Part shown: piece after piece, positions 672-51,097 of the stretch
Position numbering within the stretch: position 1 is the stretch's first letter
How the letters are laid out: every line of letters begins with the position of its first letter
Assembly (NCBI GenBank): GCA_902794075.1
Contig: CADBGE010000001.1
Span: forward strand, 342,477 to 400,076
Origin: an uncultured Erysipelotrichaceae bacterium
GTDB taxonomy: Bacteria; Bacillota_I; Bacilli_A; RF39; UBA660
DNA length: 57,600 bases
Direction: 5' to 3'
Translations under genes and position numbers: made by a program
Notes under the pieces: generated by a model
What the model saw: only the letters and a program-made list of their open reading frames with translations
Databases searched by the model: none
What the model was told of the DNA's origin: nothing

Positions 672-1547
672 TTATTTAAATATGTTATTAAATAATTGAT
701 GTGTAAACGATATTACTTTATCTTTTATTATATGGAGGTTATTAATTCTTGTAATACAAAATGGAGGTATAGATTCAGTTGTCCAATATGCATTACATTG
801 TTCATCAAATGATGGATCCAGAAAAAACTTTGGTTTATGAACTAATTGTTTAATGTTTATCTTAAGAATAATGTTTTTATCATTGCTTAATATATTCTTA
901 ATATTATTTAACATTTCAGATGATGTTTTTGGTGAAATGAAATATATTCTATTAGGATAATCAAATCTTGAATTTTCAGATCTTGGTTCAAGCCCATATC
1001 TTAATATATTATCAACTCTGTTTTTAGAAGTAATATGATATAATATTCCATTGAATTTATTATATATTATGTCAGAACAATCTGGAGTGTCTATATCCTC
1101 AATTCTTATTCTGTTTCTTGTTAATCCTTTGCTAACATTAGAAACAAATACATTATATTTTTTACATAATTTTATAAATTTGTCATCATCATATTCAAAG
1201 TTTTTTCTAACTTTCAATACGCACACATATTTATTGTTGTCTTGAAATATTTCTGAACTCTTTATATCATATTCATTTTTTATGATATTTAAAAATTGAT
1301 TTAGATTTTCATAAACAATATTATCGTATAAATGATGTTGATATTCATCATAATCAATGTATGAATTATTATTTAAATATGTTGAAGACATAAATTTATA
1401 TGTCTCAAAATCTTCATAAGTTTCAATTAATTCATCAGTTGATAAAGAAAATGTATCTATATCATTATCCAAACAAAAATCTTCAAACAAATAATCATTT
1501 GTTCTTATATTATGTGCTCCATATATATATTCAGTTAACGATTTCAT
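672..1547 (-). CDS. Putative ADP-ribosyltransferase/Tpt1(KptA)-like fold protein with CTS-like N-terminus
   Basis: LYHITS...ILRYGLEP...RIYF...ILKINI...DP...YWTTESIPP pattern of ART-fold proteins; starts MKSLTEYI; paralog at 41211. Confidence 0.55.
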   Translation of the reverse strand: MKSLTEYIYGAHNIRTNDYLFEDFCLDNDIDTFSLSTDELIETYEDFETYKFMSSTYLNNNSYIDYDEYQHHLYDNIVYENLNQFLNIIKNEYDIKSSEIFQDNNKYVCVLKVRKNFEYDDDKFIKLCKKYNVFVSNVSKGLTRNRIRIEDIDTPDCSDIIYNKFNGILYHITSKNRVDNILRYGLEPRSENSRFDYPNRIYFISPKTSSEMLNNIKNILSNDKNIILKINIKQLVHKPKFFLDPSFDEQCNAYWTTESIPPFCITRINNLHIIKDKVISFTHQLFNNIFK

Positions 1548-1807
1548 TAAGACAATTCATCAAAAAATTTATTCAAATCTGTTTCAGTCTTTGTTCCAGT
1601 AAATCTTTTAAGTTCATTATCATTGTCATCTATTACTATAACTGTTGGGATATTTCTAATTCCATATTCAATAGCCAAATCTTCCATATCTTCTTCTATA
1701 TTAATCTTCTTTACTTCAATATTTCGTTCAGATGTAACCTTTTCCAATATTGGTGCTAAAGATTTGCATGGATTACACCAATCTGCATAAAAATCATATA
1801 CTGTCAT
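1547..1807 (-). CDS. trxA: Thioredoxin
   Basis: DFYADWCNPCK active site, YGIRNIPT cis-Pro motif, 86 aa. Confidence 0.92.
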   Translation of the reverse strand: MTVYDFYADWCNPCKSLAPILEKVTSERNIEVKKINIEEDMEDLAIEYGIRNIPTVIVIDDNDNELKRFTGTKTETDLNKFFDELS

Positions 1808-1946
1808 AATCTTGTTTCATATAAATTTTTGTATATATAAAAATCAAAATTAGTATGAACTAAATTATAATTATAATATATAAAAATGCCATTTGTCTAT
1901 TTAATATTTCATTTAACATTTTTAAACATTTTCGTTTTTGTAACAA

Positions 1947-1958
1947 TATTTTTAATTA
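1947..1958 (+). promoter_or_regulatory. Candidate late-promoter motif TATTTTTAATTA
   Basis: Exact 12-mer upstream of the leader-bearing gene at 1999; same 12-mer at 3943, 43203 (+) and 22812, 34772 (-). Confidence 0.45.
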
Positions 1959-1998
1959 TATTTTAAATTACAGTAATGAAATACATAGACATATATTT

Positions 1999-2469
1999 AT
2001 GAAGTCATTGAATACATATCTAAATGAAAAGTTATTAGTGAACAAGAACTTTAAAAGTGTTAATGCAAACGATGCGTTTTATAATGATTTCGGTAGCGTT
2101 TTATCAGCAGATTCTGATATTGGATGGTTTAAGACATACGACATCAAAGACCTCTTGTCAATAAAAATAGCAATTGAAGACGGAAATGCAGTAGATAAGC
2201 TCAAAGAGTTCTTTAATATAGGCAAAGTTAAATACTCAAGAAATGCTACAGAAGATTTTCCAAAAGAACGAGCATTATATTATGATATATTAAAATTCAT
2301 TGCTGACAACAAAGATGATATGAAATTCTTTTATATAAATGAACAAACAACAAATGGAGAATATTTCATATATTTATTTGAAACAGGTAAAATAAAAGTT
2401 GCTGTATGGGGTCATGAAAAAATTGTAGGTACACGTAGAGGAACAATAGTATTTCAATATATTAAATAA
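1999..2469 (+). CDS. CTS-leader protein, cargo family X (unknown)
   Basis: MKSLNTYLNE-KLLVNKNF; shares FYxxF...YFIYLFET...GTIVFQY with 37490, 34238, 30748 and the C-half of 28383. Confidence 0.8.
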   Translation: MKSLNTYLNEKLLVNKNFKSVNANDAFYNDFGSVLSADSDIGWFKTYDIKDLLSIKIAIEDGNAVDKLKEFFNIGKVKYSRNATEDFPKERALYYDILKFIADNKDDMKFFYINEQTTNGEYFIYLFETGKIKVAVWGHEKIVGTRRGTIVFQYIK

Positions 2470-2496
2470 TCTATAATGTAATTTATAACAAAGTTT

Positions 2497-2982
2497 ATGA
2501 AAAATTTGAGTGAATATTTTGCAGAAAAGTTACTAATCAACAAAAATTATAAAAATCCTAAAATAAAAGTATCATCTCTTAGGGAATTAAAAAATATCAT
2601 ACAAGACAGATCTACAGACCCAAGGACAAAAAAATTCAATCATAATATAGACTTAAGTGATATTGATGTTTCAGAACTTGATGATTTATCTGAAACATTC
2701 ATTTGGTATAAATTTAAAACAATAGATATAAGTGGTTGGGATACTTCAAATGTTAAGGTGATGACTCAAATGTTTTATGGATGTGATGAACTTGAAGACA
2801 TTATAGGTATAGAAGATATTGATATTAAAAATGTAGTATACATGGCTTATATGTTTGCTGATTGCCCAAAACTTGACATAACGGATAAGATAAAAGATTG
2901 GGAAATAGATCCAAGTGTTGTTTGGGCCACAAACATGTTTAGAGATTGCCCAACTAAATTTAAGTTTAAGATGAAAAAATAA
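2497..2982 (+). CDS. CTS-leader protein with BspA/DUF285-type leucine-rich repeats
   Basis: MKNLSEYFAE-KLLINKNY; IDVS motif, ISGWDTSNVKVMTQMFYGC repeats. Confidence 0.85.
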   Translation: MKNLSEYFAEKLLINKNYKNPKIKVSSLRELKNIIQDRSTDPRTKKFNHNIDLSDIDVSELDDLSETFIWYKFKTIDISGWDTSNVKVMTQMFYGCDELEDIIGIEDIDIKNVVYMAYMFADCPKLDITDKIKDWEIDPSVVWATNMFRDCPTKFKFKMKK

Positions 2983-3002
2983 AAAATAATCATTAGATAA
3001 TT

Positions 3003-3293
3003 ATGAAATCGATGGAAGAAATTGCTTTACAAAGCAATATAGTAGAAGATCTTGATGCACAATATGATAAGGCAATAGAATTACTTAAAGAAGCAAAGGA
3101 AAACAAACAGCCTATTGATGAAGGATTGTTTGGTGCTATATTTGGTGGATTAGTTGGTGCAACTGCTGGTCCGGCTATTGGCAAAGCTCTTTGTAAGACT
3201 CTCGGATTGGATGAACGAGGCATGCTTGGAAACTTACTTACATCTCGTCTGTTCTTGACAGCACTTGGCGGTTATATGGGATGGAAAAACTAA
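3003..3293 (+). CDS. Small glycine-zipper membrane protein, possibly proteolytically matured virion protein
   Basis: Acidic N-half ending PIDE, then GLFGAIFGGLVGATAGPAIG hydrophobic Gly-zipper. Confidence 0.6.
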   Translation: MKSMEEIALQSNIVEDLDAQYDKAIELLKEAKENKQPIDEGLFGAIFGGLVGATAGPAIGKALCKTLGLDERGMLGNLLTSRLFLTALGGYMGWKN

Positions 3294-3319
3294 TTTGATA
3301 ATAAATAGACATTAGTAGA

Positions 3320-3889
3320 ATGAAGTCATTAAAAAACTACATATCAGAAAAATTGTTAATCAATAAAGATTATAAAGATATTAATAACATTGATGATTTT
3401 CTATCCTCTGAAAAATTAGTTTATATTAAATTTTCAAAGCTAACTTCGACGACATTTCCAAAATTAATTATTGACATTAAAAAAATAAAGCATGTGAACG
3501 ATTACGATATTAATGACACTGAAATTACTATTAGTTATGGAGATGGTATATTGTTTGCAGATGAATTTAATAATTGTGCATTTAGTTTACAAAAAAATAA
3601 TTTATCATTATTAAGATATAATAATGGAAAGACGCGCAATAATTTATTATCATCAATTACGTTACTTATAAATCCATCAGCAAATGATAAAGTAAAATCA
3701 ATGATTACAACAATTCATAACAATGGTAATTATGAAAAAGAATCTAAAGATGCATTAATAGATTTTATAAAATATGTTGTAGAGAATGACAATGACCAAA
3801 ATACTATTATTGATTTTATAGGAGAAAAAATTAATACTAATGAAATATTAGATAAATATTGTTATGAGAGATTAATGTCTAACATATGA
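3320..3889 (+). CDS. CTS-leader protein, unknown cargo
   Basis: MKSLKNYISE-KLLINKDY. Confidence 0.8.
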   Translation: MKSLKNYISEKLLINKDYKDINNIDDFLSSEKLVYIKFSKLTSTTFPKLIIDIKKIKHVNDYDINDTEITISYGDGILFADEFNNCAFSLQKNNLSLLRYNNGKTRNNLLSSITLLINPSANDKVKSMITTIHNNGNYEKESKDALIDFIKYVVENDNDQNTIIDFIGEKINTNEILDKYCYERLMSNI

Positions 3890-3942: not shown

Positions 3943-3954
3943 TATTTTTAATTA
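3943..3954 (+). promoter_or_regulatory. Candidate late-promoter motif TATTTTTAATTA
   Basis: Exact 12-mer upstream of the gene at 3988. Confidence 0.45.
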
Positions 3955-3987
3955 TAATTAAAATACAAAAACATAAAAAATATAACG

Positions 3988-9681: not shown

Positions 9682-12600
9682 TTATGTTGTTTTTGTTGTA
9701 TCTGTTGAAGATTCTTCAGTTGTTGCAGAACTTGACATTGATTGAATTTCTACAGTCATTGGCTGTTTCATTAGATTAGATACCTCTTCAACAGACTTCT
9801 TGATTAATTCATGACGACGTTCTTGTATCTTATCTGCCTTCATTATTGTTGTTTCAGCATGAATTAGTCTCTTAACTAATTCTTCAAGAACCTTACTTAA
9901 TCTATTTGCTATTGCATCTGTAAGTCTATCAAGATTGCCCATTTTATTTGCAAGTTGGTTTAATGAAGTTATAAATTTATTCATTTGATTTAGATTGAGC
10001 AATTTTATAGAATTTAGTGTTTTGACAAATTTCTCAATTTGAGTGTTCTGTGCCTTGAATCGTTCAAGTGATTTAACATCTATATTATTTAATTCCTTTA
10101 ATATGCCAGTATACGTAGTTATTACAGATGTTATTGAATATATATCGCGTATGTTCATATTTCCAAATGAACTATTTACTGTCTTTACAACATAGAAGAA
10201 TCCTTGCAATGATGTAGCCACATTTGAATAGTCAACAGGAGTTATTTGAACGGCGATAGAATTAATTTTTATTAATTCTAATAAAGTATCACCCATAAAA
10301 TCAGTATATAAATGAATCTTTTTTCGTAATTTATTTAATTCATATTCAGCATCAAGATTGCTTAAGGTGTCTCTATCTGTTTCTGCTGCACCTAATGTAA
10401 ATACTTCTTCAACATCAGACAATATTCTTCTTCCTAAACTTACGTCAGAAATTGTTTTTGTGTTTGTTAAATTTTCGTCTAAGTTATTTAATTTCATTAA
10501 TGTCGCAAATAATTCAGATGTATTAGTAACGACAGTATCTATTGTGGATACATAATTATCTTTAGTGAATGTATTTTTTAATTCATTTATACCTGTTTTT
10601 GTTGCATTGACATATTCATTCAATGATGTAAACGATAATAAAATAGAGAATACTGTATTCATTAAACTTGAAGTACTATTGCCAACACCATCAATTTTAT
10701 CAACATATTTTTTAATTATATCTGAAAATGAATAAGTTATTTTAATTTCTCCAAAAAGTTTAGTATCTATTGTTGCACTCCCATATTTTTCATCACCACC
10801 AAATAATAATTTTAATGTTTCATAAAACGAATTAATTACTGTTGATAAATTTTTATTTGTTGTGGATAATAATTTTATTGTTGTTGGTAATTTTTTTATA
10901 CTTTCATCTTCTAATATACTAGTAATTGCACCAGATATTTCCGTTATTGCTGATGATCCATTGTTTACAAACTCAACAACATCGTTCATATCTGTTGTAT
11001 TGTCAGATGATTTTGAATTTAATGATGAAAATGTAGGATCATTTATTATATCCATCATTGCCTCACCAAGTGATATAACAACTGTTTTAATATGTAATTT
11101 TGCGTCTTGTATTTTTTGGTCGGACAGTGGTTCAGAATATTGCATTATACCATTATTATCTACACCCTTTGGAAAACGCATTGTTGCATACCCATATATA
11201 CACCCAGAAATAATAGATAATGTCTCAGCAAGTGATTTTATAGAATTAATAACTATTGCAATAGTTCCAGATGAATGCATTGTACCTGTTGAATTAGAAT
11301 TAAACATTTGTATTGGACTATCACTTATATATTGAAGCCAACTATTATTAGCGTCATTCATTATTTCATTAAATGCTTTACCTATTGTTCCAACAATTTT
11401 TTTTATGTTAGTTGATGCATCCGTAAAATCTTGCGTTCCCATTTTTGTAAAACTTATTGGTTTACCATTTTTATCCCATGCATTAGGTATCGATAATGCT
11501 GCTATGTTTTGAACTGCAGTTGCAACAGATGAAATAACATTTCCTGCTTGATTTATTGCATTTAATATTATATTTAAATTTTTATCATTAAATAGTGCCT
11601 TTGTAGTAGAATTATTATTAAGTGCAGCAACTGTTGCTACAGTGTTAATCAATACATCAGTTATTGCTGTTTTTGCTAATCCCAATGTATCCTTTGTGAT
11701 CTTAACAGGTTCTTTACTATCTCCAAATTGACCACCAGCAAACATCACAATCCCACGTGCTATTGATTCTATAACAGTTCCCATTTTTGCTGATGCGTCT
11801 ATAACACGTTCTATTGGAGACATTGTGTCAATAGTAACTACCTCATCTGATCCAAAAAAGTTTTTAATTACCTCTGTTCTAATTTGCCATAACTCAGGTT
11901 TATATTTATATATACCAATAAGTGCACCGGCTGTTGTAGATATTACTTCAGTTATTTTTGATGCAGCATTTTTTAAATCGCCTTGCGTTAGTTTAATCCA
12001 TCCTGTAGCCTTGCCATCCTTATCAAATGCAGTTGGTATTTTCATATTTGCATAATCAGCAAGTCCCTTGGCTATATTTCCTATTGATGTGCCAATTTTT
12101 TCTGATGCACTTAATATATTATATAATGGTGATTTTTCAAATTCTTCATCATCATCTAATTTCCACCAATCACTATGCAGTCCATTAGCCTCATCAATTA
12201 ATGCCTGAGCAACAGTTATGATTACTGTTGTTATACACTGTGCAGCTTTACTGAAATCTTCTGTATTTAATTCTTTATATCCTTTTTTAGGATTTCCATT
12301 TTCATCAATTCCTCCTGAATAATCTGGAAACATCATTTTTGAAAAATTAGATATACCAGTTGCAAGAGATGACACAACAGATCCTATCTTTACAGATGAA
12401 TCAAGTACTCTATCAAATGCCTCGTGGGCATCGTCATCATCAGCTAATATATATTTTTTTATTATTTCAAACGCAGGACCTTCTTTATATGAGCCATCTT
12501 TATTTTGAATATATCCCATTAAACCAAGCATCGTTGTTGTGATTACTGTTCCAATGTTTTGTCCGGCCAACTTAAAGTCTTCATGACCCATTTCTTTAAA

Positions 12601-21306: not shown

Positions 21307-21359
21307 TATTCTATATATATTAATATATTATCTTTATACATAAAATTTTAATAAAAATT

Positions 21360-22792: not shown

Positions 22793-22811
22793 ATTTATTT
22801 AAAAAAATATA

Positions 22812-22823
22812 TAATTAAAAATA
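22812..22823 (-). promoter_or_regulatory. Candidate late-promoter motif TATTTTTAATTA
   Basis: Exact 12-mer upstream of 22792. Confidence 0.45.
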
Positions 22824-28367: not shown

Positions 28368-28382
28368 CTATTTACATAATGT

Positions 28383-30091: not shown

Positions 30092-30131
30092 TACGTTTTT
30101 CTAAATATTGTTTTTTTTTCTAATCTTAACA

Positions 30132-30746: not shown

Positions 30747-30747
30747 A

Positions 30748-32629: not shown

Positions 32630-32630
32630 A

Positions 32631-34230: not shown

Positions 34231-34237
34231 TTATATG

Positions 34238-34750: not shown

Positions 34751-34771
34751 TATTTCACATTAATAATTTTA

Positions 34772-34783
34772 TAATTAAAAATA
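34772..34783 (-). promoter_or_regulatory. Candidate late-promoter motif TATTTTTAATTA
   Basis: Exact 12-mer heading the 34750 to 23776 gene run. Confidence 0.45.
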
Positions 34784-37963: not shown

Positions 37964-38706
37964 TCTTTGTACCAATTCGGTATATTTGTTATTCCTGAAC
38001 TATCAAACATACAACTCATGTATTTAACTTTTGAGACATCCCATTTTGATAAGTCTCCTACTGATTTTAACTGTTCGCAACCTTCAAACATAAAACTCAT
38101 ATTTTCAACTTTTGATACATTCCATTTTGATAAATTTCCAACTGATTTTAAGTTTATACATTTATCAAACATGGAACTAATGTCTTCAACATTTGAAACA
38201 TCCCAATTAGATAAATCACCGACAGATTTTAAATTGTAGCATTCATTAAACATTTCATACATATCTTTAACCTTTGACACGTTCCAATCTGTTATGTCAA
38301 TGTATTCAAATTTTGTTGCATCAAATATTCCTTCATTTATATTTGCATTATAAAATGAATCAATATTACTTACATCGACATCATTAAAGTCAATAGGTTT
38401 ATGTTCTGTTCCAGGTCCAACGTTGTAAAGTCTATCAATAATGATATTTTTTAACTCTTTAAATGATTTTGGAGCATATGTATACTGATTGTAATTTTTA
38501 TTGATGATTAGTTTCTCATCAAATTGCTGATTGATGATTAGTTTCTCATCAAATTGCTGATTGATGATTAGTTTCTCATCAAATTGCTGATTGATGACAA
38601 GCCTTTCAGATATATTTACATTTTGATGTAAAGTTTTACTTTCAGCAATATTTACATTTTGATGTAAAGTTTTACTTTCAGCAATATAATTTACTAATGA
38701 TTTCAT
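37960..38706 (-). CDS. CTS-leader BspA/DUF285-type LRR protein with amplified leader modules
   Basis: (SKTLHQNVNI[A/S]E)2 then ([R/K]L[V/I]INQQFDE)3; LKSVG[D/N]LS[N/K]W repeats. Confidence 0.88.
   Translation of the reverse strand: MKSLVNYIAESKTLHQNVNIAESKTLHQNVNISERLVINQQFDEKLIINQQFDEKLIINQQFDEKLIINKNYNQYTYAPKSFKELKNIIIDRLYNVGPGTEHKPIDFNDVDVSNIDSFYNANINEGIFDATKFEYIDITDWNVSKVKDMYEMFNECYNLKSVGDLSNWDVSNVEDISSMFDKCINLKSVGNLSKWNVSKVENMSFMFEGCEQLKSVGDLSKWDVSKVKYMSCMFDSSGITNIPNWYKE
38515..38676 (-). repeat. Tandem 36-bp (x2) and 30-bp (x3) leader modules
   Basis: Direct in-frame repeats with no spacers. Confidence 0.9.
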
Positions 38707-39350
38707 TCTACTCCTTTAGGCTTATATTTATCTTCTATACCGCAATTATTAAACATTGCATAAGTATTAGAGTTATCTGTAATATTCCAATTAGATAAAT
38801 CCGAATTAAAGTTCTTACAATCTTTAAACATCATATAAAAATCCTCTCCTTCACTAACTTTCCAATCACTTAAATCTGAATTAAATTTATAGCACCTAGC
38901 AAACATAGTAGAAAAATTTTCACATTTACTAACGTTCCAATTACTTAAATCAGAATTAAATTCATTACAATTATAAAACATAGATAAAAAAATCGTACTG
39001 TTTCTAACGTCCCACTTACTAAGATCACAATTGAACTTTTTACAACCAGCAAACATTTGGGTAAAATTCTCTCCTTTACCAACATTCCATTTGCTAACAT
39101 CAAAATTTTTATTTCCGGTGTTTTCGTCACCAACAAACAATTCACTAAAGTTAGTTACTTCAGATGTGTCAATGTCATTTAAGTCATATATACCTTTATT
39201 ATAATGTTCTTCTATTGAAGCCTTTAATTCAACTATGTCTTTTGGATGATAATTATAACCGTCATCATAGTTCTTATTGATTAACAGTTTTTCAGATAAT
39301 GAAATTAAATATGATTTATCTGATTTTATGTAGTTCGTTAACGATTTCAT
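38703..39350 (-). CDS. CTS-leader DUF285-type LRR protein
   Basis: MKSLTNYIKSDKSYLISLSE-KLLINKNY; FNSDLSNWNVS repeats; ends KPKGVE. Confidence 0.88.
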   Translation of the reverse strand: MKSLTNYIKSDKSYLISLSEKLLINKNYDDGYNYHPKDIVELKASIEEHYNKGIYDLNDIDTSEVTNFSELFVGDENTGNKNFDVSKWNVGKGENFTQMFAGCKKFNCDLSKWDVRNSTIFLSMFYNCNEFNSDLSNWNVSKCENFSTMFARCYKFNSDLSDWKVSEGEDFYMMFKDCKNFNSDLSNWNITDNSNTYAMFNNCGIEDKYKPKGVE

Positions 39351-39997
39351 TGTACTCCTTTTGGTTTAAATTTATCATCTATGTCGCACTCGTTAAACAT
39401 TCCATCAGTGTCAGATTTAACTACAATATTCCAATTAGATAAATCAGAATTATAATTCGTACAATGAGCAAACATTTCTACAAAATCTTTACATTTGCTA
39501 ACATTCCACTTACTTAAATTAGAATTAAAGTTTTCACATCCAAAAAACATATGGTTAAAATGTCTGCTCTTACTTACATTCCAATCATTTAGATCACAAT
39601 TAAATTTATTACAATTATAAAACATGTAACGAAAATCTACGCCTTTACTAACATCCCAATTACTTAAGTCACAATTGAATTTTTCGCATCCTCCAAACAT
39701 CCATGAAAAATCTTTACCATTACTTACGTTCCATTCACTAATATCAAAATTGTTTGGTGTATTTTCATTCATAAAAATAGAACTAAAGTTAGTTATTTCA
39801 GATACGTCTATGTCATTTAAGTCATATATGTCATTATCATAATGTTCTTGTATTGCAGCTTCTAATTCTTCTCTCGTTGTTGGATGATAATTATAACCGT
39901 CTTTATAATTCTTATTTATGATTAATTTTTCATTCAAATATTTATTCAAAGAATGAAGGTCTTTCATATATGAAATATATGTCGTTAGTCTTTTCAT
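39347..39997 (-). CDS. CTS-leader DUF285-type LRR protein
   Basis: MKRLTTYISYMKDLHSLNKYLNE-KLIINKNY; FNCDLSNWDVS repeats; ends KPKGVQ. Confidence 0.88.
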   Translation of the reverse strand: MKRLTTYISYMKDLHSLNKYLNEKLIINKNYKDGYNYHPTTREELEAAIQEHYDNDIYDLNDIDVSEITNFSSIFMNENTPNNFDISEWNVSNGKDFSWMFGGCEKFNCDLSNWDVSKGVDFRYMFYNCNKFNCDLNDWNVSKSRHFNHMFFGCENFNSNLSKWNVSKCKDFVEMFAHCTNYNSDLSNWNIVVKSDTDGMFNECDIDDKFKPKGVQ

Positions 39998-41210: not shown

Positions 41211-42074
41211 ATGCAAACATTAAAAGAATATATATTAAATAAAGGATTGCCACATGAATTTGATGAAGACTTAAATACATTTTGGAACATTAAAGATACT
41301 GATACATGGCTATTTGAGACTTATGATAAATCAATGAATATATCTGAAGATGATTTTTATAATAAAAAATATTCATCTAATTATATTGATTTACCAAAGT
41401 ATTGGTATTGGCAAAGAAAGTTATATGAAACACTTAGTCATTCATTAAAGACAGCGGACCCAATTTTATTAAGATTATTAAAAAAATTAAAAAATGTTAT
41501 ACGATATGACACAACAGGAGATTTAATAAACATACAAGTAAATGATAAATTTGATATAAAATCAAAAGAGTTTAAAACATTTTTAAATTTCATAAATTAT
41601 CATATAAGTAATAAATACATTGACAATAATATTATCACAATAGAACCAAGTATAACAGATGAGATTGATTATGATAATGAATACGCATATCATGTAACAT
41701 CAAAATGGAATTATGAAAAGATAAAGAAAAATGGATTAATACCAAAATCAAAATCATCGTTAGCAAATTATGATTTAAGAATATATTTATGGTTACCACA
41801 TAATGATAAGATTGATGATAATCTAAAATATTCAATCAAATCATATGGAAGAATGATGTTGAGATTATATAAAATGTATAATGTAAATGATAAGCATGAT
41901 TATTATGATAATATAGATATTAATGATGCAGTCATATTAAGAATTAATTTAAAAGAATTTGAAAAAGATCATAGAAAAAAAATGAAGCTATTTGGTGATC
42001 CACAAACATCAAATAATGCAGTATATACATTTGAGCCAATACCGACAAAGTACATAGAAAAAATTGAATTATAA
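41211..42074 (+). CDS. Putative ADP-ribosyltransferase/Tpt1-like protein with CTS-like N-terminus
   Basis: MQTLKEYI; AYHVTS...IKKNGLIP...RIYL...VILRINL...DP...VYTFEPIP; paralog of 672. Confidence 0.55.
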   Translation: MQTLKEYILNKGLPHEFDEDLNTFWNIKDTDTWLFETYDKSMNISEDDFYNKKYSSNYIDLPKYWYWQRKLYETLSHSLKTADPILLRLLKKLKNVIRYDTTGDLINIQVNDKFDIKSKEFKTFLNFINYHISNKYIDNNIITIEPSITDEIDYDNEYAYHVTSKWNYEKIKKNGLIPKSKSSLANYDLRIYLWLPHNDKIDDNLKYSIKSYGRMMLRLYKMYNVNDKHDYYDNIDINDAVILRINLKEFEKDHRKKMKLFGDPQTSNNAVYTFEPIPTKYIEKIEL

Positions 42075-43240: not shown

Positions 43241-44116
43241 ATGAAATCATTAAAACATTACATAGAAGAAAAACTTATCATATTTCCATCACAAGTAGAT
43301 GAAAAACTTGTTATATTTCCATCACAAGTAGATGAAAAACTTGTCATATTTCCATCACAAGTAGATGAAAAGCTTGTAATAAATAAGAATTATAGTAGTG
43401 GACATTCATGTAAGCCAAAAACAATAGAAGAACTTCGGACTATTATTGGTCAACGTATAAAAGATCAAGGATATGGGACAGAACACGATCCAATTAGTTT
43501 TAATGATATTGATACAAGTGAAATAACTACGTTTGAATCACTATTTTGGAACTCTAAATATGATAATGACATAAGTAAATTAAAATATATAGATGTATCT
43601 GACTGGGATGTTTCAAATGTAAATAACTTTAGAAATACGTTTTATGATTGTGAGGAACTTGTAAGTGTTGGTGATTTATCAGATTGGGATATGACTAATG
43701 CTGAAAATATTAGCGGTATGTTTTATTTCTGTAAAAGTTTAACTAATATAGGTGATCTTTCTAATTGGAACATAACTAATAAGTTGACTAATACATCTAC
43801 AATGTTTTGTATGTGTAAATCAATAAAAGACATTGGAAATATTGGAAAATGGGATATGTCAAATGTTAAAAGTACGGTACAAATGTTCATGGCATGTTCT
43901 AATTTAAAAAATGTTGGTGATTTATCTAATTGGGATTTTACAAATGTTTTGGCAATGTCAAATATGTTTTGGAGTTGTTCATCGTTAAAATCTATTGGTA
44001 ATATATCTAAATGGAAAGAACCAAAGGCGTATAAAAGTGACACAACGTTATATTGGCATGAAATTTTTACCGGTTCTGCCATAGATGCTATTCCTGATTG
44101 GTATATGTTTAATTAA
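43241..44116 (+). CDS. CTS-leader BspA/DUF285-type LRR protein
   Basis: MKSLKHYIEE-(KL[I/V]IFPSQVDE)3-KLVINKNY; about six LRRs; ends IPDWYMFN. Confidence 0.88.
   Translation: MKSLKHYIEEKLIIFPSQVDEKLVIFPSQVDEKLVIFPSQVDEKLVINKNYSSGHSCKPKTIEELRTIIGQRIKDQGYGTEHDPISFNDIDTSEITTFESLFWNSKYDNDISKLKYIDVSDWDVSNVNNFRNTFYDCEELVSVGDLSDWDMTNAENISGMFYFCKSLTNIGDLSNWNITNKLTNTSTMFCMCKSIKDIGNIGKWDMSNVKSTVQMFMACSNLKNVGDLSNWDFTNVLAMSNMFWSCSSLKSIGNISKWKEPKAYKSDTTLYWHEIFTGSAIDAIPDWYMFN
43268..43366 (+). repeat. 3 x 33-bp tandem leader module A
   Basis: gaaaaactt[a/g]t[c/t]atatttccatcacaagtagat x3. Confidence 0.92.
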
Positions 44117-44320
44117 ATATTTTTAACACAAAGTTATATATTAATATATATATAACCATTTTTGTAAAAAGCGATCTTTGAAATAAATATAAGCAACTAG
44201 ATTTCCAAAAGTTGAATGAAATTTGTTCTGCACAGAAAATTGTGTTAAGCATTTTTATTCAGACGAAATTCACATTTTATGTGGACTAATCAAAAATAAT
44301 AAATGGAATAAACAATCGTT

Positions 44321-44968
44321 ATGAAAGAAAAGAAAGTAAAGAGATTTTTGGCAATCACAATGTTTGTGCTATTATCAATTATGTTTTATAGCGGAACATT
44401 TACAGCCAATTCCTCAGTGGCGACAGTACCGCTAGAAATAAATAGTACATTATTATCTAATAATATAGACACAAACAAGACCGAGTCATATGATTCAATA
44501 ATCACAATAATGAATAAAAAAGATTCATTGAGAAATAAATTAATTGATGATGTTAATAATCATATTCAAAAGAATTTTAAAATTTATGACATTAACATTC
44601 CAATGTATCTTGTTAATCATTCATTAAAATATAATATTGACATATGCTTTATGATGGCTCAAACAACAATTGAGACAGGGTTTGGAACTGCCGGTGCAGG
44701 TCGTCCCTCATCTCGTCATTCGTTGTTTGGTGTATGCAAACGGTACAGTAATTATAATAACGCAATAGAAGATTACTGTAAATTACTTAGAAGATCATAT
44801 CTTGGAAATACAAAAACAGAATATGATCTTATGAAAAACTACGTAACCTTGAGCGGTGCAAGATACGCAGGCAATAGAGGTTATGAAAGAGAACTGAAAG
44901 CAGAATATAAGCGTATTCGTAACAGAACTCAAATTTATGAACTCTGGACAGAATTAAAGAATTCATAA
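44321..44968 (+). CDS. Glucosaminidase (GH73-like) lysin with N-terminal signal/anchor
   Basis: MAQTTIETGFG, SLFGV, YA...Y motif; N-terminal hydrophobic helix. Confidence 0.7.
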   Translation: MKEKKVKRFLAITMFVLLSIMFYSGTFTANSSVATVPLEINSTLLSNNIDTNKTESYDSIITIMNKKDSLRNKLIDDVNNHIQKNFKIYDINIPMYLVNHSLKYNIDICFMMAQTTIETGFGTAGAGRPSSRHSLFGVCKRYSNYNNAIEDYCKLLRRSYLGNTKTEYDLMKNYVTLSGARYAGNRGYERELKAEYKRIRNRTQIYELWTELKNS

Positions 44969-45003
44969 ATGACAGCAAGCAAAAATATATCTTATCATCA
45001 AAG

Positions 45004-45711
45004 ATGAAAAAATGGTTCTTAAACTTATTAAGATCTCTGACAATTAGAGATCTAATTTATGCAGTCGTAATATTGTTGTTGGTTGGTGTATGCAGTACAG
45101 CAATCAATAAGTGCACTGACAATGATGCAGCGTATAGAAACAATATTGAGGCCTTGACTGATAGTATTCATTACTATAAGGCTAAGGACGGAAATTTAGT
45201 TGCTATTAAGACGGCATTCACTGCACAGGCCGAAGAGCTTAAACTTTTAAATAAAGATCTTTATGATAAGATAAAGTCACTTGATGTCAAACCAAAAACT
45301 ATTACAAACACGGTGTACCTGAAGGGAGAGACTGAATTTCTTCCTCAGGATACCGCGTATGTAATTAAACATGACACAATAACACGAGGTATCTACAAAG
45401 AATTCAACTTCAATAATGATTGGAGAGTACTTGAAGGAAATGTAAAGTATAAAAACGATACTATGGGGGTAAACATCACAAAGGATATCGTCAAGTTTGA
45501 TTATACTGTAGCAATGGATAAGAATAACAAGATCTATATAAAATCTTCCAATCCGTATGTAAAGTATGAGGAGATAAGTGGTTTTCAAGTACCAAAACCA
45601 CGAGCAAAGAGATGGGGAATTGGACCTCAGATTGGTGCAGGAGTAACAACTGACGGTAAGTTTAGACCATATATAGGAATAGGTATTCAATGGAGCCCAA
45701 TTCAGTTCTAA
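45004..45711 (+). CDS. Membrane-anchored lysis-associated (spanin-like) protein
   Basis: N-terminal TM, coiled coil, C-terminal amphipathic beta hairpin KRWGIGPQIGAG...PYIGIGIQW; directly after the lysin. Confidence 0.5.
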   Translation: MKKWFLNLLRSLTIRDLIYAVVILLLVGVCSTAINKCTDNDAAYRNNIEALTDSIHYYKAKDGNLVAIKTAFTAQAEELKLLNKDLYDKIKSLDVKPKTITNTVYLKGETEFLPQDTAYVIKHDTITRGIYKEFNFNNDWRVLEGNVKYKNDTMGVNITKDIVKFDYTVAMDKNNKIYIKSSNPYVKYEEISGFQVPKPRAKRWGIGPQIGAGVTTDGKFRPYIGIGIQWSPIQF

Positions 45712-45728
45712 AATTATAAAAACAGACT

Positions 45729-45947
45729 ATGAAAACATTGAAACAACACATAGAAGAAATAAACGAACGAATTGCTTCACCCATTCTTAATGATTCACAG
45801 TTGAATAGAGTGTGGAACAATATGACAAGCGAGATGGATACTGAAGAACTTCTTGATGCAATATATTCATGTATGGATTCATGAACAAAGAATGAGGTGT
45901 TTTGGAAAATAGACCAAAAATATCATATGCATGTATTTCCAAAATGA
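45729..45947 (+). pseudogene. CTS-leader gene interrupted by an in-frame TGA
   Basis: MKTLKQHIEE...CMDS*(45882-45884)TKNEVFWKIDQKYHMHVFPK*; the second stop forms an ATGA overlap with the next gene. Confidence 0.6.
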
Positions 45948-46438
45948 AACAGTTAACTGACTATATAGAGGAAAAACTATTAATCAACAAGAACTTCAAG
46001 GAGTTTGAACCTGATGAAAAAGAATATGATCCTGAAGAACTTACAACATATGTTCTGGAACACTTCGAAATATTGCCTGACAATCAAACAACAAAACTTT
46101 CACGAATGAATAAGATATCGTCTGATGACTATAATGATTTATATAAAAAGCTTCATAACTTGTTTGTTGATAAGTTTGACGTTGTGTGCTGTAGGAACAT
46201 AACATTTTTAGCAGAAGCAAGATGCATCAGTTGGCTTGATGATAATCTTCAGAATTCATATAAAGAATCATACATAGCCCAAAGAATATGGACAGATGAT
46301 AAAAAGTTGTTAAAGAGAATTTCGGATAAGTTTATCATATTTTATGTATATAATGAATCTGCTAAAATTTTAAAAGTAGTATATAGTAGAACATTAAATA
46401 ACATAACTTTAATCTGTAATATTAATTTTAACCCATGA
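45944..46438 (+). CDS. CTS-leader protein, cargo family Z
   Basis: Start reassigned to MKQLTDYIEE-KLLINKNF; Y..EELT.Y.L..F.I shared with 47771. Confidence 0.8.
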   Translation: MKQLTDYIEEKLLINKNFKEFEPDEKEYDPEELTTYVLEHFEILPDNQTTKLSRMNKISSDDYNDLYKKLHNLFVDKFDVVCCRNITFLAEARCISWLDDNLQNSYKESYIAQRIWTDDKKLLKRISDKFIIFYVYNESAKILKVVYSRTLNNITLICNINFNP

Positions 46439-47055
46439 GAACATTAGCACAACACATAGAAGAACGATTAATCATTAACAAGAACTATAATGACATTTAT
46501 AAGTATTGGCCAAAAGATAAACAAGACCTAGAAAGGATTATTATAGAAGAACATTATAATAAAGGTATATATGATTTAACTGATATAGATGTATCTAATA
46601 TAACTGACTTTAGTTATATTTTTTATGAGGATAAAAATACAGAAAACAAAGATTTTAATATTAGTAGTTGGGATGTAAGTAATGGGATAAACTTTACTTC
46701 AATGTTTTACGGTTGTATAAAATTTAATTGCAACTTGAGTAATTGGAATGTAAGTAATTGTAAAGTTTTTTCTTGGATGTTTGCATATTGTAGGAATTTT
46801 AATTTAAATTTAAGTAATTGGAAAGTAAATAATGGAAGATATTTTGACGCAATGTTTTATGGTTGTACGAAATTCAATTCAAATTTAAGTAATTGGAAAG
46901 TAAATAGTGGAAAAGATTTTTCAGGAATGTTTTATGAATGCATAAATTTCAATTCAGACTTAAGTCAATGGACTATTCAAAATACTGCCAATGTAAGTGA
47001 TATGTTTTATAAATGTAATATAGATGATAAAAATAAACCAAAAGGAGTACGATGA
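46435..47055 (+). CDS. CTS-leader DUF285-type LRR protein
   Basis: MRTLAQHIEE-RLIINKNY; FNxNLSNW repeats; ends KPKGVR; paralog of 38703. Confidence 0.88.
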   Translation: MRTLAQHIEERLIINKNYNDIYKYWPKDKQDLERIIIEEHYNKGIYDLTDIDVSNITDFSYIFYEDKNTENKDFNISSWDVSNGINFTSMFYGCIKFNCNLSNWNVSNCKVFSWMFAYCRNFNLNLSNWKVNNGRYFDAMFYGCTKFNSNLSNWKVNSGKDFSGMFYECINFNSDLSQWTIQNTANVSDMFYKCNIDDKNKPKGVR

Positions 47056-47774
47056 AGTCGTTAAATAATTACATAGCTGAGAAACTAATCATCAATCAGC
47101 GATTTGATGAGAAACTAATCATCAATCAACGATTTAATGAAAAACTAGTCATCAATAAAAATTACAACTCATATACTTGTGCTCCAACAACATTTAAAGA
47201 GTTAGTAAAGATCATAGAACAACGATATAAAGAACAAGGTCCTGGAACAGAGAAGAATCCTATTGACTTTAATGATGTAGATGTTAGCAATATTGATTCA
47301 TTTTATAATGCAAATACAAATGAAGGAATATTTGATGCAACAAAATTTGAATACATTGACATATCTGATTGGGATGTTTCAAATGTTAAGATTATGAATT
47401 ACATGTTTTATAATTGTGAAAAATTAAAATTTGTTGGTGACTTATCTAATTGGGATGTTTCAAATGTTGAAGATATGAATTATATGTTTTCCAATTGTGG
47501 AATAGAATCAGTTGGAAATTTATCTAAATGGGATGTTTCAGGTGTTAATCGTATGCACGGTATGTTTAAAGGGTGTTGTAACTTAAAATCAGTCGGTGAC
47601 TTATCAAATTGGAATATTTTAAAACTTAGAGATGTTGGCTGGATGTTTACATGGTGTTCTAATTTAACATCAGTGGGAGACTTATCAAAATGGAATATTT
47701 CAGGTCTTAGAGATGTAAGTTATATGTTTGAAGGCTCAGGAATAAAAAATACACCAAATTGGTATAAAAAATGA
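47052..47774 (+). CDS. CTS-leader BspA/DUF285-type LRR protein
   Basis: MKSLNNYIAE-(KLIINQRF[D/N]E)2-KLVINKNY; paralog of 37960. Confidence 0.88.
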   Translation: MKSLNNYIAEKLIINQRFDEKLIINQRFNEKLVINKNYNSYTCAPTTFKELVKIIEQRYKEQGPGTEKNPIDFNDVDVSNIDSFYNANTNEGIFDATKFEYIDISDWDVSNVKIMNYMFYNCEKLKFVGDLSNWDVSNVEDMNYMFSNCGIESVGNLSKWDVSGVNRMHGMFKGCCNLKSVGDLSNWNILKLRDVGWMFTWCSNLTSVGDLSKWNISGLRDVSYMFEGSGIKNTPNWYKK

Positions 47775-48253
47775 AGTCATTAAAAAACTACATAGATGAA
47801 AAACTTGTCATCAATAAAGATTTTAATAATGTAAAAGATACATACACTATTGATGAATTAACATATATTATATTAAGCAATTTCCAAATTAAAAGATCAG
47901 ATAAAGCAAGTCCATCTGTTAAACATAAATTAAATTCTTTTAAGTATTCATCTATATACAATTCATTGAAATATTTAATTAAGGATATTGCTGGTGACCA
48001 TGACATTGATACAAATGATGTTTCGTTTTATGTAAGTAAGAAACATGTTTCAGAAATTACTGATGATGAAATTGTAAAACAGTACAATATAGAAGATAAA
48101 AGCAATATATTCTTTGATGAGAACCTATTATGTTTTTCATATGATGATGACTGCAAATTTAGTTTATCATATTGGACAGATAAAAACACATTATACATTT
48201 TTTATTTTGGATATGAAAAATACATAATCTTAACATGTGAAATAAAATTATGA
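47771..48253 (+). CDS. CTS-leader protein, cargo family Z
   Basis: MKSLKNYIDE-KLVINKDF. Confidence 0.8.
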   Translation: MKSLKNYIDEKLVINKDFNNVKDTYTIDELTYIILSNFQIKRSDKASPSVKHKLNSFKYSSIYNSLKYLIKDIAGDHDIDTNDVSFYVSKKHVSEITDDEIVKQYNIEDKSNIFFDENLLCFSYDDDCKFSLSYWTDKNTLYIFYFGYEKYIILTCEIKL

Positions 48254-48972
48254 AATCATTAACAAACTATATTTATGAAAATAATTTTCACAAAAGTGAA
48301 ATAAAATCTGATAAATCATCTTTTATTTCATTATCTGAAAAACTTGTCATCAATAAAGATTTTAAAGAAGCTGTCGTAAAGCCTAAAAACATAGATGAAT
48401 TAAAAGAGTTCATTAATGAACGAATTGAAATGATGATTGATAGTAACACTGATGTATTAGACGTCGCAGGTATTGAATTTTCTTTATTTTCAAATAGAGA
48501 GAAACCATTATATATGTTATTTAATGATTCTTTAGAAAATGTTAAAAAAGATAATATAATTGTAGATGTTTCTAATTGGGATTTATGTAAATTGTCGCGT
48601 ATTGATTGTTTGTTTTATGACTGTAAATCTATTAAAAAGATTGTTGGGTTAGAAACATGGGATGTTTCAAATATAAGAGATTTTGCTGGTATGTTTTCAC
48701 AATGCAATAATTTAGAAGAAGTTGACTTATCTAATTGGAAATTAACCAACGCTATTACAACACTTGCCATGTTCTATGAATGTTTTAGTCTCAAAACGAT
48801 AAAAGGATTAGATACATGGACATTAAATAATAATAAAATTGATATGGACAATATGTTTATTGGATGTATAAATTTAAAAAATATCGGAAATATTGATTAT
48901 TGGTCTCCTGGATCACATAATAAAATGTTTGATAGCTGCAATAAGCAAATAATACCAAAATGGTATAATTAA
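48250..48972 (+). CDS. CTS-leader BspA-type LRR protein
   Basis: MKSLTNYIYE-NNFHKSEIKSDKSSFISLSE-KLVINKDF; LETWDVSNI..FAGMF repeats; IPKWYN. Confidence 0.85.
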   Translation: MKSLTNYIYENNFHKSEIKSDKSSFISLSEKLVINKDFKEAVVKPKNIDELKEFINERIEMMIDSNTDVLDVAGIEFSLFSNREKPLYMLFNDSLENVKKDNIIVDVSNWDLCKLSRIDCLFYDCKSIKKIVGLETWDVSNIRDFAGMFSQCNNLEEVDLSNWKLTNAITTLAMFYECFSLKTIKGLDTWTLNNNKIDMDNMFIGCINLKNIGNIDYWSPGSHNKMFDSCNKQIIPKWYN

Positions 48973-49526: not shown

Positions 49527-49551
49527 AGTTATATTGATTTTTTGTATAGAT

Positions 49552-49580
49552 AAAATATAAAAGTATCCTTAAAAATTCAA
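49552..49580 (-). promoter_or_regulatory. Promoter TTGAAT-N17-TATTTT
   Basis: Recurring motif; the -35 box overlaps the U-tract of the adjacent terminator. Confidence 0.6.
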
Positions 49581-49607
49581 AAGAGGTTAGAAAAAAATTC
49601 CAACCTC
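49579..49607 (-). terminator. Intrinsic terminator after the S1-domain gene
   Basis: Minus strand gaggttggaa...ttctaacctc followed by TTTT. Confidence 0.6.
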
Positions 49608-49647
49608 CAAACAAAAAACTATGGCAAAATATATTGTTTGTTTTTAA

Positions 49648-50724
49648 TCAACCAACAAGTCCAAACACAACTCGTGTATTACATCTAATTATATCACCCT
49701 TCTTGTTGGTAACAAACGGTTCCTGTCCTTCTTTAATTTCAAAGTCCATTGGATATACTGTTACAGCATCACCTGGCTTAAAATTCATAAGATCCATCTT
49801 ATCAACAGGCATAAGTCCAGTAATATACATTCCATCAAGCTCAACAAATACACCTGTTTTCTTACCACTATTTATAATACCAGTGACATGGCCTTGTAGA
49901 CTTTCAGGTTCAGCTTTAAAGTTCTCACTCTTTGTAAGCAAATATCTATTATAAATCTCAAACAAATGAATATTGCCTTTCATCTGAAGTAATAGCTTAC
50001 GAGATCCTACCAATGAATTCTCAACAACACCTTCACGATAATTAGTTCTAAACTCAACAAACTTCTGCGGAATGATAAGTACGTCTTCATCGATCCAACG
50101 CTCAAAATCATTTTCAATATTTAGTACAATAGCAGAACCAGGAATGAATACAGAATGCGTATAATCCTTTCCAGTTAATTCCTTAAGTGTTGAAATACTA
50201 GTATGGCACAGATATCCTCCCTTTGTTAATGAATCAATGTGTACTTCAATTGCATTCTTCTTATAAATGGATTCCTCAATAGCATGTTTCCATAGCTTAT
50301 ACATACCATTAATTACAGAAACAATATACTTACCTTTTTCATGTGAACGAACCTCAAACAGAAGACGATTATCATGATTAAGTAAATAATTCTGTACATG
50401 ATCCATGCATCCATTGAAATTTTCCTTACAAATGATTTCATCCTTAATTCCAGGCATATCAAATGTAATTCCATGCTTGTCAATCTCTTTTACCTCTGCA
50501 ATGTAGCAATTACCAAGTTCAAAATCAGGAACATCTACTACATTAACATTTACGTTTTCAAGATCTTCATCAAGCTCATAAAACTTCTTAAATGATTCTC
50601 CGATACTCATCTGTCCATAATTATTGGACATATAACGAATACGATCTCTTTCTTTTGTGAATACGGCTGCATCGTCCAAATCTTTTGCAACCAATAACTT
50701 CTTTGTATTTTTCTTATTTCCCAT
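49648..50724 (-). CDS. Multi-S1-domain RNA-binding protein (ribosomal protein S1-like)
   Basis: Three OB/S1-like segments: AEVKEIDKHGITF, HIDSLTKGGYL...VFIPGS, GHVTGI...GVFVEL...GLMP. Confidence 0.7.
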   Translation of the reverse strand: MGNKKNTKKLLVAKDLDDAAVFTKERDRIRYMSNNYGQMSIGESFKKFYELDEDLENVNVNVVDVPDFELGNCYIAEVKEIDKHGITFDMPGIKDEIICKENFNGCMDHVQNYLLNHDNRLLFEVRSHEKGKYIVSVINGMYKLWKHAIEESIYKKNAIEVHIDSLTKGGYLCHTSISTLKELTGKDYTHSVFIPGSAIVLNIENDFERWIDEDVLIIPQKFVEFRTNYREGVVENSLVGSRKLLLQMKGNIHLFEIYNRYLLTKSENFKAEPESLQGHVTGIINSGKKTGVFVELDGMYITGLMPVDKMDLMNFKPGDAVTVYPMDFEIKEGQEPFVTNKKGDIIRCNTRVVFGLVG

Positions 50725-50803
50725 AATGTGTATTTATGATCCCTATATGCAATGGGTGAGGGATCTTTTTAAAAGTATATTTATGATTTTATTTATGTAT
50801 TTA

Positions 50804-51097
50804 TTAAATAGCTTTTACTAAATTATCTGATGCATCAGGCTTCTTAGGATTACCGAAATTATCTATAGCCTTAAGACATACCCCAATGTCATTCCATTGA
50901 TATTCCTGAAGCTTTTCATCCTTCATCTTAACTTTTCCATATATAATATTTGGAACTTCACTAATGTCAACCTTTGTCACAATAACTTGACGACCATCCT
51001 TAGTCATAACCGGCTTTTCATCATTAATCCATTGCATATCTATATGGTTGCCACGCATTTCATTTATGTCTTTAATTTTTTCTGTATATGTTTTCAT
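50804..51097 (-). CDS. Small protein with T4-internal-protein-like N-terminus
   Basis: MKTYTEKIKDINE; KPVMTKDGRQV. Confidence 0.65.
   Translation of the reverse strand: MKTYTEKIKDINEMRGNHIDMQWINDEKPVMTKDGRQVIVTKVDISEVPNIIYGKVKMKDEKLQEYQWNDIGVCLKAIDNFGNPKKPDASDNLVKAI

Follow-up and report, generated by a model that had tools for sequence, protein, structure and literature searches.

The stretch of DNA described here – 57,600 nucleotides, referred to as the window, at bases 342477-400076 of contig CADBGE010000001.1 (C1) in the 129-contig bin GCA_902794075.1 – contains arrays of genes that begin with the same short leader, MKSLxxYIxE, and then continue into largely different downstream segments, or cargos. 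The leader family extends over the whole of C1, a phage genome, where it comprises 76 of the 473 open reading frames (ORFs), approximately 16% or about one gene in six. We interpret the leader as a capsid-targeting propeptide of the phage T4 type that has been expanded over about 76 genes, an interpretation in which we have moderate confidence and from which we infer cleavage, packaging and injection of the tagged proteins. Such a role was first suggested by a first-pass annotation of the window, and that suggestion is partly supported: C1 encodes the expected protease, scaffold and capsid proteins, the leader matches the T4 tag at positions 4, 7, 8 and 10, and a promoter-like motif is common to the leader gene arrays and the structural genes. 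The part left without support is the proposal that the sequence KLxINK at the end of the leader is a second sorting signal.

A shared leader on 76 genes

The leader is present on 30 ORFs in the window, counted by regular expression (regex), and four or five looser look-alikes (672-1547, 21779-22792, 41211-42074, 50804-51097 and, doubtfully, 3003-3293) bring the total close to the 35 or so reported in the first-pass annotation. The 30 ORFs lie in five clusters, at 1999-3889 (three ORFs), 21109-21782 (two), 23776-34750 (14), 37490-39997 (four) and 43241-48972 (seven), and 26 of them contain E[KR]L[IVL][IV][NS]K, one more than the 25 counted originally. Neighbouring genes on the same strand overlap by 1 or 4 nt in 12 of 27 pairs. 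Throughout the genome, the first 40 amino acids of the 76 family members never include 10 or more consecutive hydrophobic residues, and the family therefore lacks classical (Sec, Tat or lipoprotein) signal peptides. The clustering, the gene overlaps and the absence of signal peptides described earlier are thus all confirmed.

The leader is real, and its scope is wider than the window in which it was noticed. A strict protein regex has 55 matches on C1 (400 kb) and one chance match in the other 128 contigs of the bin (1.42 Mb), and a back-translated DNA pattern is found 50 times on C1 and once elsewhere (with an internal stop codon), with no occurrences of a reversed control. The 473 C1 ORFs, which were called greedily, are the denominator for all genome-wide counts. 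A motif-independent test, which avoids circularity, selected ORFs by their first four residues, MK[ST]L, alone; 58 of the 473 ORFs on C1 start in this way, compared to six of 1620 on the other contigs. All 58 have Y, H or F at position 7 and I, L, M or V at position 8, and 40 have E at position 10, with positions 5, 6 and 9 varying freely.

The phage genome

C1 is 400,076 bp long with a GC content of 29%. Its opening 50 bases are repeated at C1:399977, indicating that the contig is circular and that the complete genome is approximately 399,977 bp. Its structural genes include those for a Gp23-type major capsid protein, a tail sheath, a tail tube, a portal and a head-closure protein, and C1 is judged to be the complete, approximately 400-kb genome of a T4-superfamily phage. 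The nearest GenBank relatives by capsid protein, each 30-34% identical, are LR756500 (an uncultured, 462-kb phage), Tenacibaculum phages PTm1, PTm5 and pT24, ‘Sphingomonas’ phage PAU, and the Prevotella Lak megaphages. These relatives make a Bacteroidota host plausible. The phage also encodes an OmpA-like outer-membrane protein (window 16564-17643, minus strand) with a signal-peptide-like N-terminus, a beta-barrel and an OmpA domain, which implies a diderm host. Considered as a possible host link, the exact matches that C1 shares with the rest of the bin are only 21-35 nt long and patternless, and none is CRISPR-like or otherwise informative.

DNA of the phage is present in several sequencing runs labelled as bovine gut metagenomes. 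The Jug phages are gut phages of 360-402 kb, and three terD genes per genome are stated for three Jug genomes (PMC12880540, in excerpt). Assignment of C1 to the Jug phages was dropped, as TerD (PF02342) has no match in the whole bin, although size and GC content are similar; the main text of the Jug report has no occurrence of ‘N-terminal’, ‘paralog’ or ‘DUF285’. The remaining contigs, C2-C129 (1.42 Mb, approximately 25% GC), resemble a small bacterial genome binned with the phage, and have P-type ATPase genes on C12 and C80.

Leader units

The ten-residue sequence MKSLxxYIxE (unit A) is followed by zero to five further units, of the types KL[IV]IFPSQV[DN]E (11 residues), KLIINQ[RQ]F[DN]E (10 residues) and SK[TA]LHQNVNI[AS]E (12 residues); other insertions after unit A include ones that end in MKTLHSLNEFI[AN]E or DKSSLISL[SND]E. 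The units are 10-13 residues long and each is closed by a hydrophobic residue, any residue and Glu (hydrophobic-x-Glu); the last unit in most genes is KL[IV]INK[ND][YF]K, which is without the final Glu. Related metagenomic phages keep MKxLxxYIxE-KL[IV]I and continue it differently (GKNIIHKK, NRNSE, KRDNG, KKS…), so that conservation covers the ten-residue tag and K-L-[IV]-I but not KLxINK in itself. A second sorting role for KLxINK as such is accordingly unsupported, and the sequence looks more like a repeated unit of 10-11 residues in its final, non-cleavable copy.

Units are not confined to N-termini. In two window proteins (27044-27820 and 28383-29426) internal units lie between two domains, and these are referred to as di-cargo proteins. 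Five database orthologs of 27044-27820 are 54-72% identical to it overall, but have one to four N-terminal and one to three linker units.

Codon usage distinguishes the parts of the leader. Ser3 is encoded by TCA (38), AGT (7), TCG (3) and TCT (1), and Leu4 by five different codons, and the codons for the tag Ser and Leu include pairs that are two mutations apart. Within the terminal unit, 45% of identical residues are differently encoded between genes. The KL[IV]IFPSQV[DN]E units are near-identical in DNA between genes, with only 15% of identical residues using another codon. This combination indicates that the units have spread by recent recombination, whereas the tag and the terminal unit are under selection at the peptide level.

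The leader is predicted to be a flexible add-on to the cargo. An AlphaFold2 model of the DUF285 member at 46435-47055 has a mean predicted local distance difference test score (pLDDT) of 90.4, with the DUF285 solenoid above 90 and residues 1-18 below 50 and without secondary structure. In the enzyme cargos the leader leads directly into the Pfam domain, which starts at residue 17 in NDK, 22 in HAD and 27 in Nudix. The AlphaFold2 model of the di-cargo protein 27044-27820, from a six-row alignment, was too poor for use (mean pLDDT 45.9); its linker region, residues 79-118, had no predicted secondary structure.

A related strain, approximately 3% different, is without window positions 25931-26573, such that residues 1-158 of the Nudix gene are fused in frame to residue 27 onward of the next DUF285 gene. 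The fusion joint is a leader unit (window 25930/26574) and the product would be a new di-cargo protein; it is represented by a single contig at a depth of 7. In other samples, short-read assemblies are interrupted at almost all leader and linker repeats of window 24000-33900, e.g. near 25964, 27518-27547, 28845-28868, 29977-30063, 30663-30703, 31266, 31818, 32518 and 33207. Such arrays would thus usually be fragmented and under-counted in metagenomes. Among contigs from four DNA runs, apparent joints are indistinguishable from repeat-induced assembly paths, with the exception of the one long bridging contig that carries the fusion.

Prohead protease, scaffold and capsid genes

A gp21-like protease, which the first-pass annotation had named as a component to be looked for, is encoded on the same contig. 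The gene (C1:157553-159226, minus strand) codes for a 557-residue protein that starts with an S77 (T4 gp21-type) prohead protease of 170 residues and is scaffold-like in the rest. The S77 assignment has a score of 42.9 bits in one search and a value of 1.5e-10 in a second, and is accompanied by a match to phrog_207 ‘head maturation protease’ (2e-37) and a weak match to the T4 gp21 structure 5JBL (E 0.002). The His and Ser columns H76, S130 and S131 are invariant in 63 aligned relatives, and the PTm1 homolog is annotated as ‘prohead core scaffolding protein and protease’. The Gp23-type capsid gene (C1:155519-157375; Pfam, 1e-31) is directly downstream, and one leader gene is immediately upstream.

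The scaffold-like region repeats the four-residue pattern of leader positions 7-10 (aromatic-[ILV]-x-E). Residues 296-420 contain seven copies of [WYFH][ILV]xE in 125 residues, compared to a proteome background of 0.20 per 100 residues (28-fold; Poisson 1e-8), and this local count is the highest in all 473 ORFs. The repeat has the form [WY]-[IV]-x-E-E-[FY]…, with its seven copies spaced approximately 12 residues apart, and the W..E periodicity is kept across the 63 relatives. The simpler motif [ILV]xE is also frequent, at 5.9 per 100 residues in the C-terminal 350 residues of the protease ORF versus 1.75 in the proteome. The capsid protein has [IL]-x-E near residues 17-19 and 37-42 of its N-terminal region, and four or five relatives share the motif at those columns. 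Complex prediction with the protease-scaffold protein (63-row alignment) and residues 1-40 of a leader protein (19-row alignment) gave a score of 0.00, which counts neither for nor against an interaction.

Head genes are also found among the leader genes themselves. The long array, which runs from 34750 down to 23776 on the minus strand, includes gp2-like and gp4-like genes, which in relatives adjoin the portal gene.

A candidate late promoter

The 13-mer ATTTTTAATWATA is present 31 times on C1 (7.7 per 100 kb), compared to 17 times in 3.5-fold more DNA elsewhere in the bin (1.2 per 100 kb), and the reversed 13-mer was never found. Of these C1 sites, 29 are located 29-61 nt upstream of a start codon. 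The window has four copies (0.24 expected): at 1948-1960 (plus strand), 51 nt upstream of the leader gene 1999-2469; at 3944-3956 (plus strand); at 22810-22822 (minus strand), 30 nt upstream of 21779-22792 and heading a small operon that ends in two leader genes; and at 34770-34782 (minus strand), where it is given as ATTTTTAATTATA and heads the long array, 32 nt before its first gene.

Copies of the 13-mer or of its 9-mer core, ATTTTTAAT, stand ahead of genes for the portal, tail tube, tail fibre and head closure and ahead of the protease operon, and the motif is thus a candidate late promoter of this phage lineage. It also precedes at least 17 family genes or operon heads, and tight operons headed by the 13-mer hold 27 of the 76 family genes. 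Because the 13-mer precedes genes of other or unassigned kinds as well, it is a hint of co-expression with the structural genes and not proof, and the timing is presumptive.

Cargos

With the leader removed, the 76 proteins form blastp clusters of 23 (DUF285/BspA-like repeat proteins), six and two members, and 45 singletons. The first-pass annotation described the cargos as unrelated, and this holds for most of them but is overstated for the 23 DUF285 paralogs. A Pfam scan covered 74 of the 76 members, leaving out two that span locus boundaries, and identified DUF285 in 22, and Nudix, DUF3175, NDK, SprT-like and HAD domains in one each; the remainder are without a family, and the phiKZ-type inner-body family PF12699 has no matches among the 74. 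A PRTase match in one cargo is weak and below Pfam's cut-off. Structural look-alikes of the six-member cargo family in the ESM Atlas score at most 0.81, below a meaningful level.

The tag is present as an N-terminal extension on NDK (C1:186320-186724, minus strand), a HAD hydrolase (170495-171142, minus strand) and a SprT-like metalloprotease (118080-119129, minus strand), and an ortholog of the HAD protein on a metagenome contig, 63% identical, also carries the tag. Family members are small, with a median of 196 residues and a maximum of 349, while 20% of the other ORFs are longer than 365 residues.

Leaders in related phages

Phage PAU, a cultured relative with a 33% identical capsid protein, has a cognate leader, MK[TS][LI]xxL[YF]E, often followed by (A/S)KLNE. 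It is present on 16 genes by DNA pattern (none with a control) and on at least 16-18 when MKSL variants are included, approximately 6% of 302 genes. These genes cluster around the head module, at PAU 100-121 kb; among them are gp152, annotated as scaffolding protein, and gp142 and gp154, annotated as ‘internal capsid proteins’. PAU thus resembles the present phage in having a cognate leader on multiple head-module genes, but it has fewer leader genes, no KLxINK-type unit or tandem unit arrays were seen in it, and its protease and scaffold are separate genes.

The exact leader of the present phage was found in four IMG/VR stretches and 18 metagenome stretches, and 23 related loci, some of which are duplicates of one contig, contain 70 leader ORFs. 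An 80-residue leader array used as query against 5.8 billion proteins matched 48 at E ≤0.01, all of them unnamed.

Comparison with known systems

The T4 tag has the sequence MKTYQEFIAE (10.1101/2021.01.19.427310), in which residues 4 and 7 govern targeting and residues 8 and 10 processing (PMC9026906, in excerpt). T4 gp21 cuts after L/I-X-E, acting many times on scaffold proteins and once, near the N-terminus, on virion proteins (PMC9026906, in excerpt). That T-even internal proteins are diverse defence proteins with only the tag in common is also already in print (PMC3012670 and PMC9026906, both in excerpt), so that the T4 tag, gp21 processing and internal proteins on which the capsid-targeting proposal drew all have published support. 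The present leader is like that of T4 IPI, IPII, IPIII and Alt in being a tag of approximately 10 residues starting MK[TS], with hydrophobic or aromatic residues at positions 4 and 7 and [I/L]-x-E at positions 8-10. An S77 protease and a Gp23-type capsid are likewise common to the two phages, as is a scaffold core, here a putative one, and both have unrelated cargos with only the tag in common. T4, however, has three internal proteins plus Alt (PMC9026906, in excerpt), compared to 76 genes here. Zero to five extra cleavage-type units, a conserved K-L-[IV]-I after the Glu and two di-cargo proteins further distinguish the present system, as do cargos that are acidic rather than basic and include enzymes; it is known at present from its genes alone.

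Giant phages of the phiKZ/SPN3US type similarly have many head-internal proteins, a 20-member paralog family among them, whose N-terminal propeptides direct their sorting and are removed by a gp21-related protease that cuts after Glu, and extra propeptide cleavage sites are thought to give smaller fragments that are easily cleared (PMC5694885, in excerpt). Unlike the present leaders, those propeptides are mostly longer than 100 residues, the motif is S/A/G-x-E, and the paralogs share whole domains (same excerpt). The polyvalent proteins of phages and conjugative elements described by Iyer et al. 2017 (PMC5512222, in excerpt) also deliver conflict-related domains with the DNA and free them by proteolysis, and PRTase and metallopeptidase domains are represented both there and here. 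According to the same excerpt these are single giant multidomain proteins with their own metallopeptidase, whereas here there are mostly separate small tagged genes whose products are presumably cut by the head protease. The new aspects here are the scale (76 genes), the tandem cleavage-type units of variable copy number, the di-cargo proteins and the enzyme cargos. No description of a leader expansion or of the PAU leader turned up in the literature searched, whose coverage stops short of subscription journals and supplements.

Organization of the leader genes in the window

At the left end of the window are three plus-strand leader genes. The first (1999-2469) has the leader MKSLNTYLNE-KLLVNKNFK and, by blastp clustering and regex, a cargo of the six-member family, which is without an assigned function; the second (2497-2982) has a DUF285 cargo (PF03382, 5e-16), and the third (3320-3889) a singleton cargo without a known family by blastp clustering and Pfam. 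Two leader-only genes on the minus strand, 21109-21306 and 21360-21782, are without the KLxINK unit (ORF list and regex) and lie downstream of the look-alike 21779-22792.

The long array on the minus strand starts with 34238-34750, in which the leader is the variant MISLLQYIKDNKS…SLISLDE-KLIINKEF. It is followed by the T4 gp4-like head completion gene (33775-34230), which is without a leader, has a TnsA-like nuclease fold (PF08722, 1.7e-14) and resembles the ‘head completion protein’ gp134 of PAU (36% identity, E 2e-28). Next are seven close-packed leader genes at 29426-33778 (29426-30091, 30132-30746, 30748-31305, 31305-31991, 31988-32629, 32631-33284 and 33281-33778), with one to six leader units each; by Pfam and regex, three have DUF285 cargos and four are without a known family. 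The first di-cargo gene in the direction of transcription, 28383-29426, specifies a leader, a first domain, a three-unit internal linker and a second domain that belongs to the six-member family. It is separated by a gene with a singleton cargo without a known family (27855-28367; Pfam, regex) from the other di-cargo gene (27044-27820), which has a leader, a DUF3175 domain (Pfam), the linker VDE-KLVIIPSQVNE-KLVIIPSQVDE-KLVINKTYK and a second domain. The array continues with the Nudix hydrolase gene (26073-27047; PF00293, 1.8e-16, domain residues 27-146) and a gene with an inserted unit (…SLISLNE) and a DUF285 cargo by Pfam (25313-26008). A T4 gp2-like DNA end protector gene without a leader follows (24665-25309; phrog_429, 2.7e-18; 34% identity to the PTm1 ‘DNA end protector’), and the last gene (23776-24645) has a leader with one extra unit and a DUF285 cargo (Pfam, 1.6e-38).

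Four overlapping leader genes on the minus strand, 37490-37963, 37960-38706, 38703-39350 and 39347-39997, include three with DUF285 cargos and one with a cargo of the six-member family (Pfam, regex). On the plus strand, 43241-44116 has three KL[IV]IFPSQVDE units and a DUF285 cargo by Pfam, and is followed at 45729-48972 by six leader genes (45729-45884, 45944-46438, 46435-47055, 47052-47774, 47771-48253 and 48250-48972; Pfam, with the AlphaFold2 model of 46435-47055 described above), the last five of which overlap by 4 nt each.

Other window genes code for a helicase, a RuvC-like nuclease, a dUTPase, glycosyltransferases, a GMP-reductase-like enzyme, an exonuclease and a DNA methyltransferase. 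A 2250-residue ORF (9682-16434, minus strand) has no Pfam or PHROG match, and a megablast search of it against GenBank phages was also empty. The ORF at 54819-57599 is open at the window end and runs on into the start of C1.

Discussion

We propose that the leader genes would be transcribed together with the structural genes, and that the N-terminal MK[ST]Lxx[YHF][ILV]xE would bind the scaffold core – that is, the C-terminal half of the protease-scaffold protein with its seven [WY][IV]xE repeats – such that the tagged protein would be enclosed as the Gp23-type shell forms. The S77 protease would cut after each hydrophobic-x-Glu, releasing the leader as peptides of 10-13 residues, and in the two di-cargo proteins cuts at the internal units would separate the domains. 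Mature cargos starting K-L-[IV]-I would remain in the head and enter the host with the DNA, and extra leader units may be gained or lost by recombination. Roles of the cargos in host takeover or counter-defence are a matter of conjecture. This is the most economical interpretation, as it alone accounts for the residue pattern, the -x-E unit ends, the scaffold repeats, the internal linkers, the flexible add-on leader and the genomic company that the leader genes keep.

Several observations weigh against it. Glu at position 10 is missing in 18 of the 58 MK[ST]L ORFs, most of which have an inserted unit ending in E. The median isoelectric point of the cargos is 5.3, the same as the rest of the proteome and unlike the highly basic T4 internal proteins, and 76 protein species would compete for limited head space. 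Ordinary nucleotide-metabolism enzymes (NDK, HAD and the weakly matching PRTase) are present as cargo, and their packaging is not expected from T4. The promoter-like motif is also ahead of genes that are not obviously structural, e.g. an Hsp70-like gene and an ATPase. PTm1, LR756500, PAU and Lak-A2 give no match to the present leader pattern, and no shared leader was seen in the head modules of PTm1, LR756500 and Lak-A2. The name ‘internal capsid protein’ in PAU is taken from its annotation. The phage itself is known only from metagenomes, and cleavage, virion presence and ejection are predictions from its genes. What limits our confidence is the presence of several housekeeping-type enzymes, the acidity of the cargos, the uncertain room for 76 species in one head, and the predicted nature of both cleavage and packaging.

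The leader could instead be a docking peptide for another assembly, either for DUF285/LRR binders on the virion surface (head fibres, whiskers or tail hub) or for an intracellular hub, by comparison with the anchors of phages with multiple receptor-binding proteins. The fold of the 23 DUF285/BspA-like cargos is one that surface binding proteins typically have, two of the relatives, PTm1 and PAU, bear unusual head or tail fibres (PMC7824862, in excerpt), the model predicts a flexible leader that stands apart from the cargo, and the promoter-like motif is common to the arrays and the tail genes. However, the Nudix, NDK, HAD, SprT-like and DUF3175 cargos are not binding modules, the proteins are small with no fibre or trimer features seen, and docking leaves the hydrophobic-x-E unit ends, the scaffold four-residue repeats and the internal linkers unexplained; we think this explanation unlikely. 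It is also possible that the tag does direct proteins into proheads but that these are assembly material – core or filler, degraded or inert – and not injected effectors, in which case it is the idea of an arsenal that is wrong. This would be in keeping with T4, where most core proteins are cut to fragments and expelled (PMC9026906, in excerpt), with the leader on the PAU scaffolding protein itself, and with the resemblance of multi-unit leaders to the scaffold repeats. Folded enzymes and 45 unrelated singleton domains are hard to justify as filler, though, and the [ILV]xE sites are concentrated in the leader and not spread through the cargo as they are in the scaffold, which makes a filler role quite improbable.

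The shared 5′ end could also be without any sorting role, and represent either a recombination module for cassette duplication and swapping or an optimised translation start. Recombination has evidently left traces, in the near-identity of the KL[IV]IFPSQV[DN]E units in DNA, the assembly breaks at repeats in other samples, the contig with an in-frame fusion at a leader unit, and the variation in unit copy number between orthologs. But the peptide sequence of the first ten residues and of the terminal unit has been conserved while many synonymous differences arose in its codons, TCA versus AGT for Ser among them, the core motif is kept in diverged relatives with different following residues, and units are also found far from any start codon. 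Recombination therefore accounts for the spread of the tag but not for its residue match to the functional positions of T4, and we consider it very unlikely that the leader is nothing else.

An extended form of the capsid-targeting interpretation, which we regard as possible but doubtful, is that the virion loads a mixed sample of more than 70 armed proteins – enzymes, LRR-type binders and others of unassigned function – by means of a programmable propeptide. The number of units would set competition for the scaffold, internal units would make a mini-polyprotein with two cargos on one tag, and recombination at the unit DNA would reshuffle tags and cargos. If so, much of the ‘dark’ gene content of a huge phage would be a pre-made, injected payload and not genes expressed after entry, and the N-terminal Lys left by cleavage could time decay of the payload in the host.

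If the leader is a capsid-targeting propeptide, then one gene in six of this phage would be head-packaged cargo, providing a concrete and testable function for a large block of huge-phage genes and indicating that the T4 tag principle scales more than tenfold. The cultured relative PAU offers a route to examine this principle at the bench. The tag would serve as a sequence handle with which candidate injected proteins, some of them possibly counter-defence factors, could be listed directly from the metagenomes of related phages, and the system as a whole would be a natural multi-cargo packaging system comparable with engineered T4 protein-delivery vectors.

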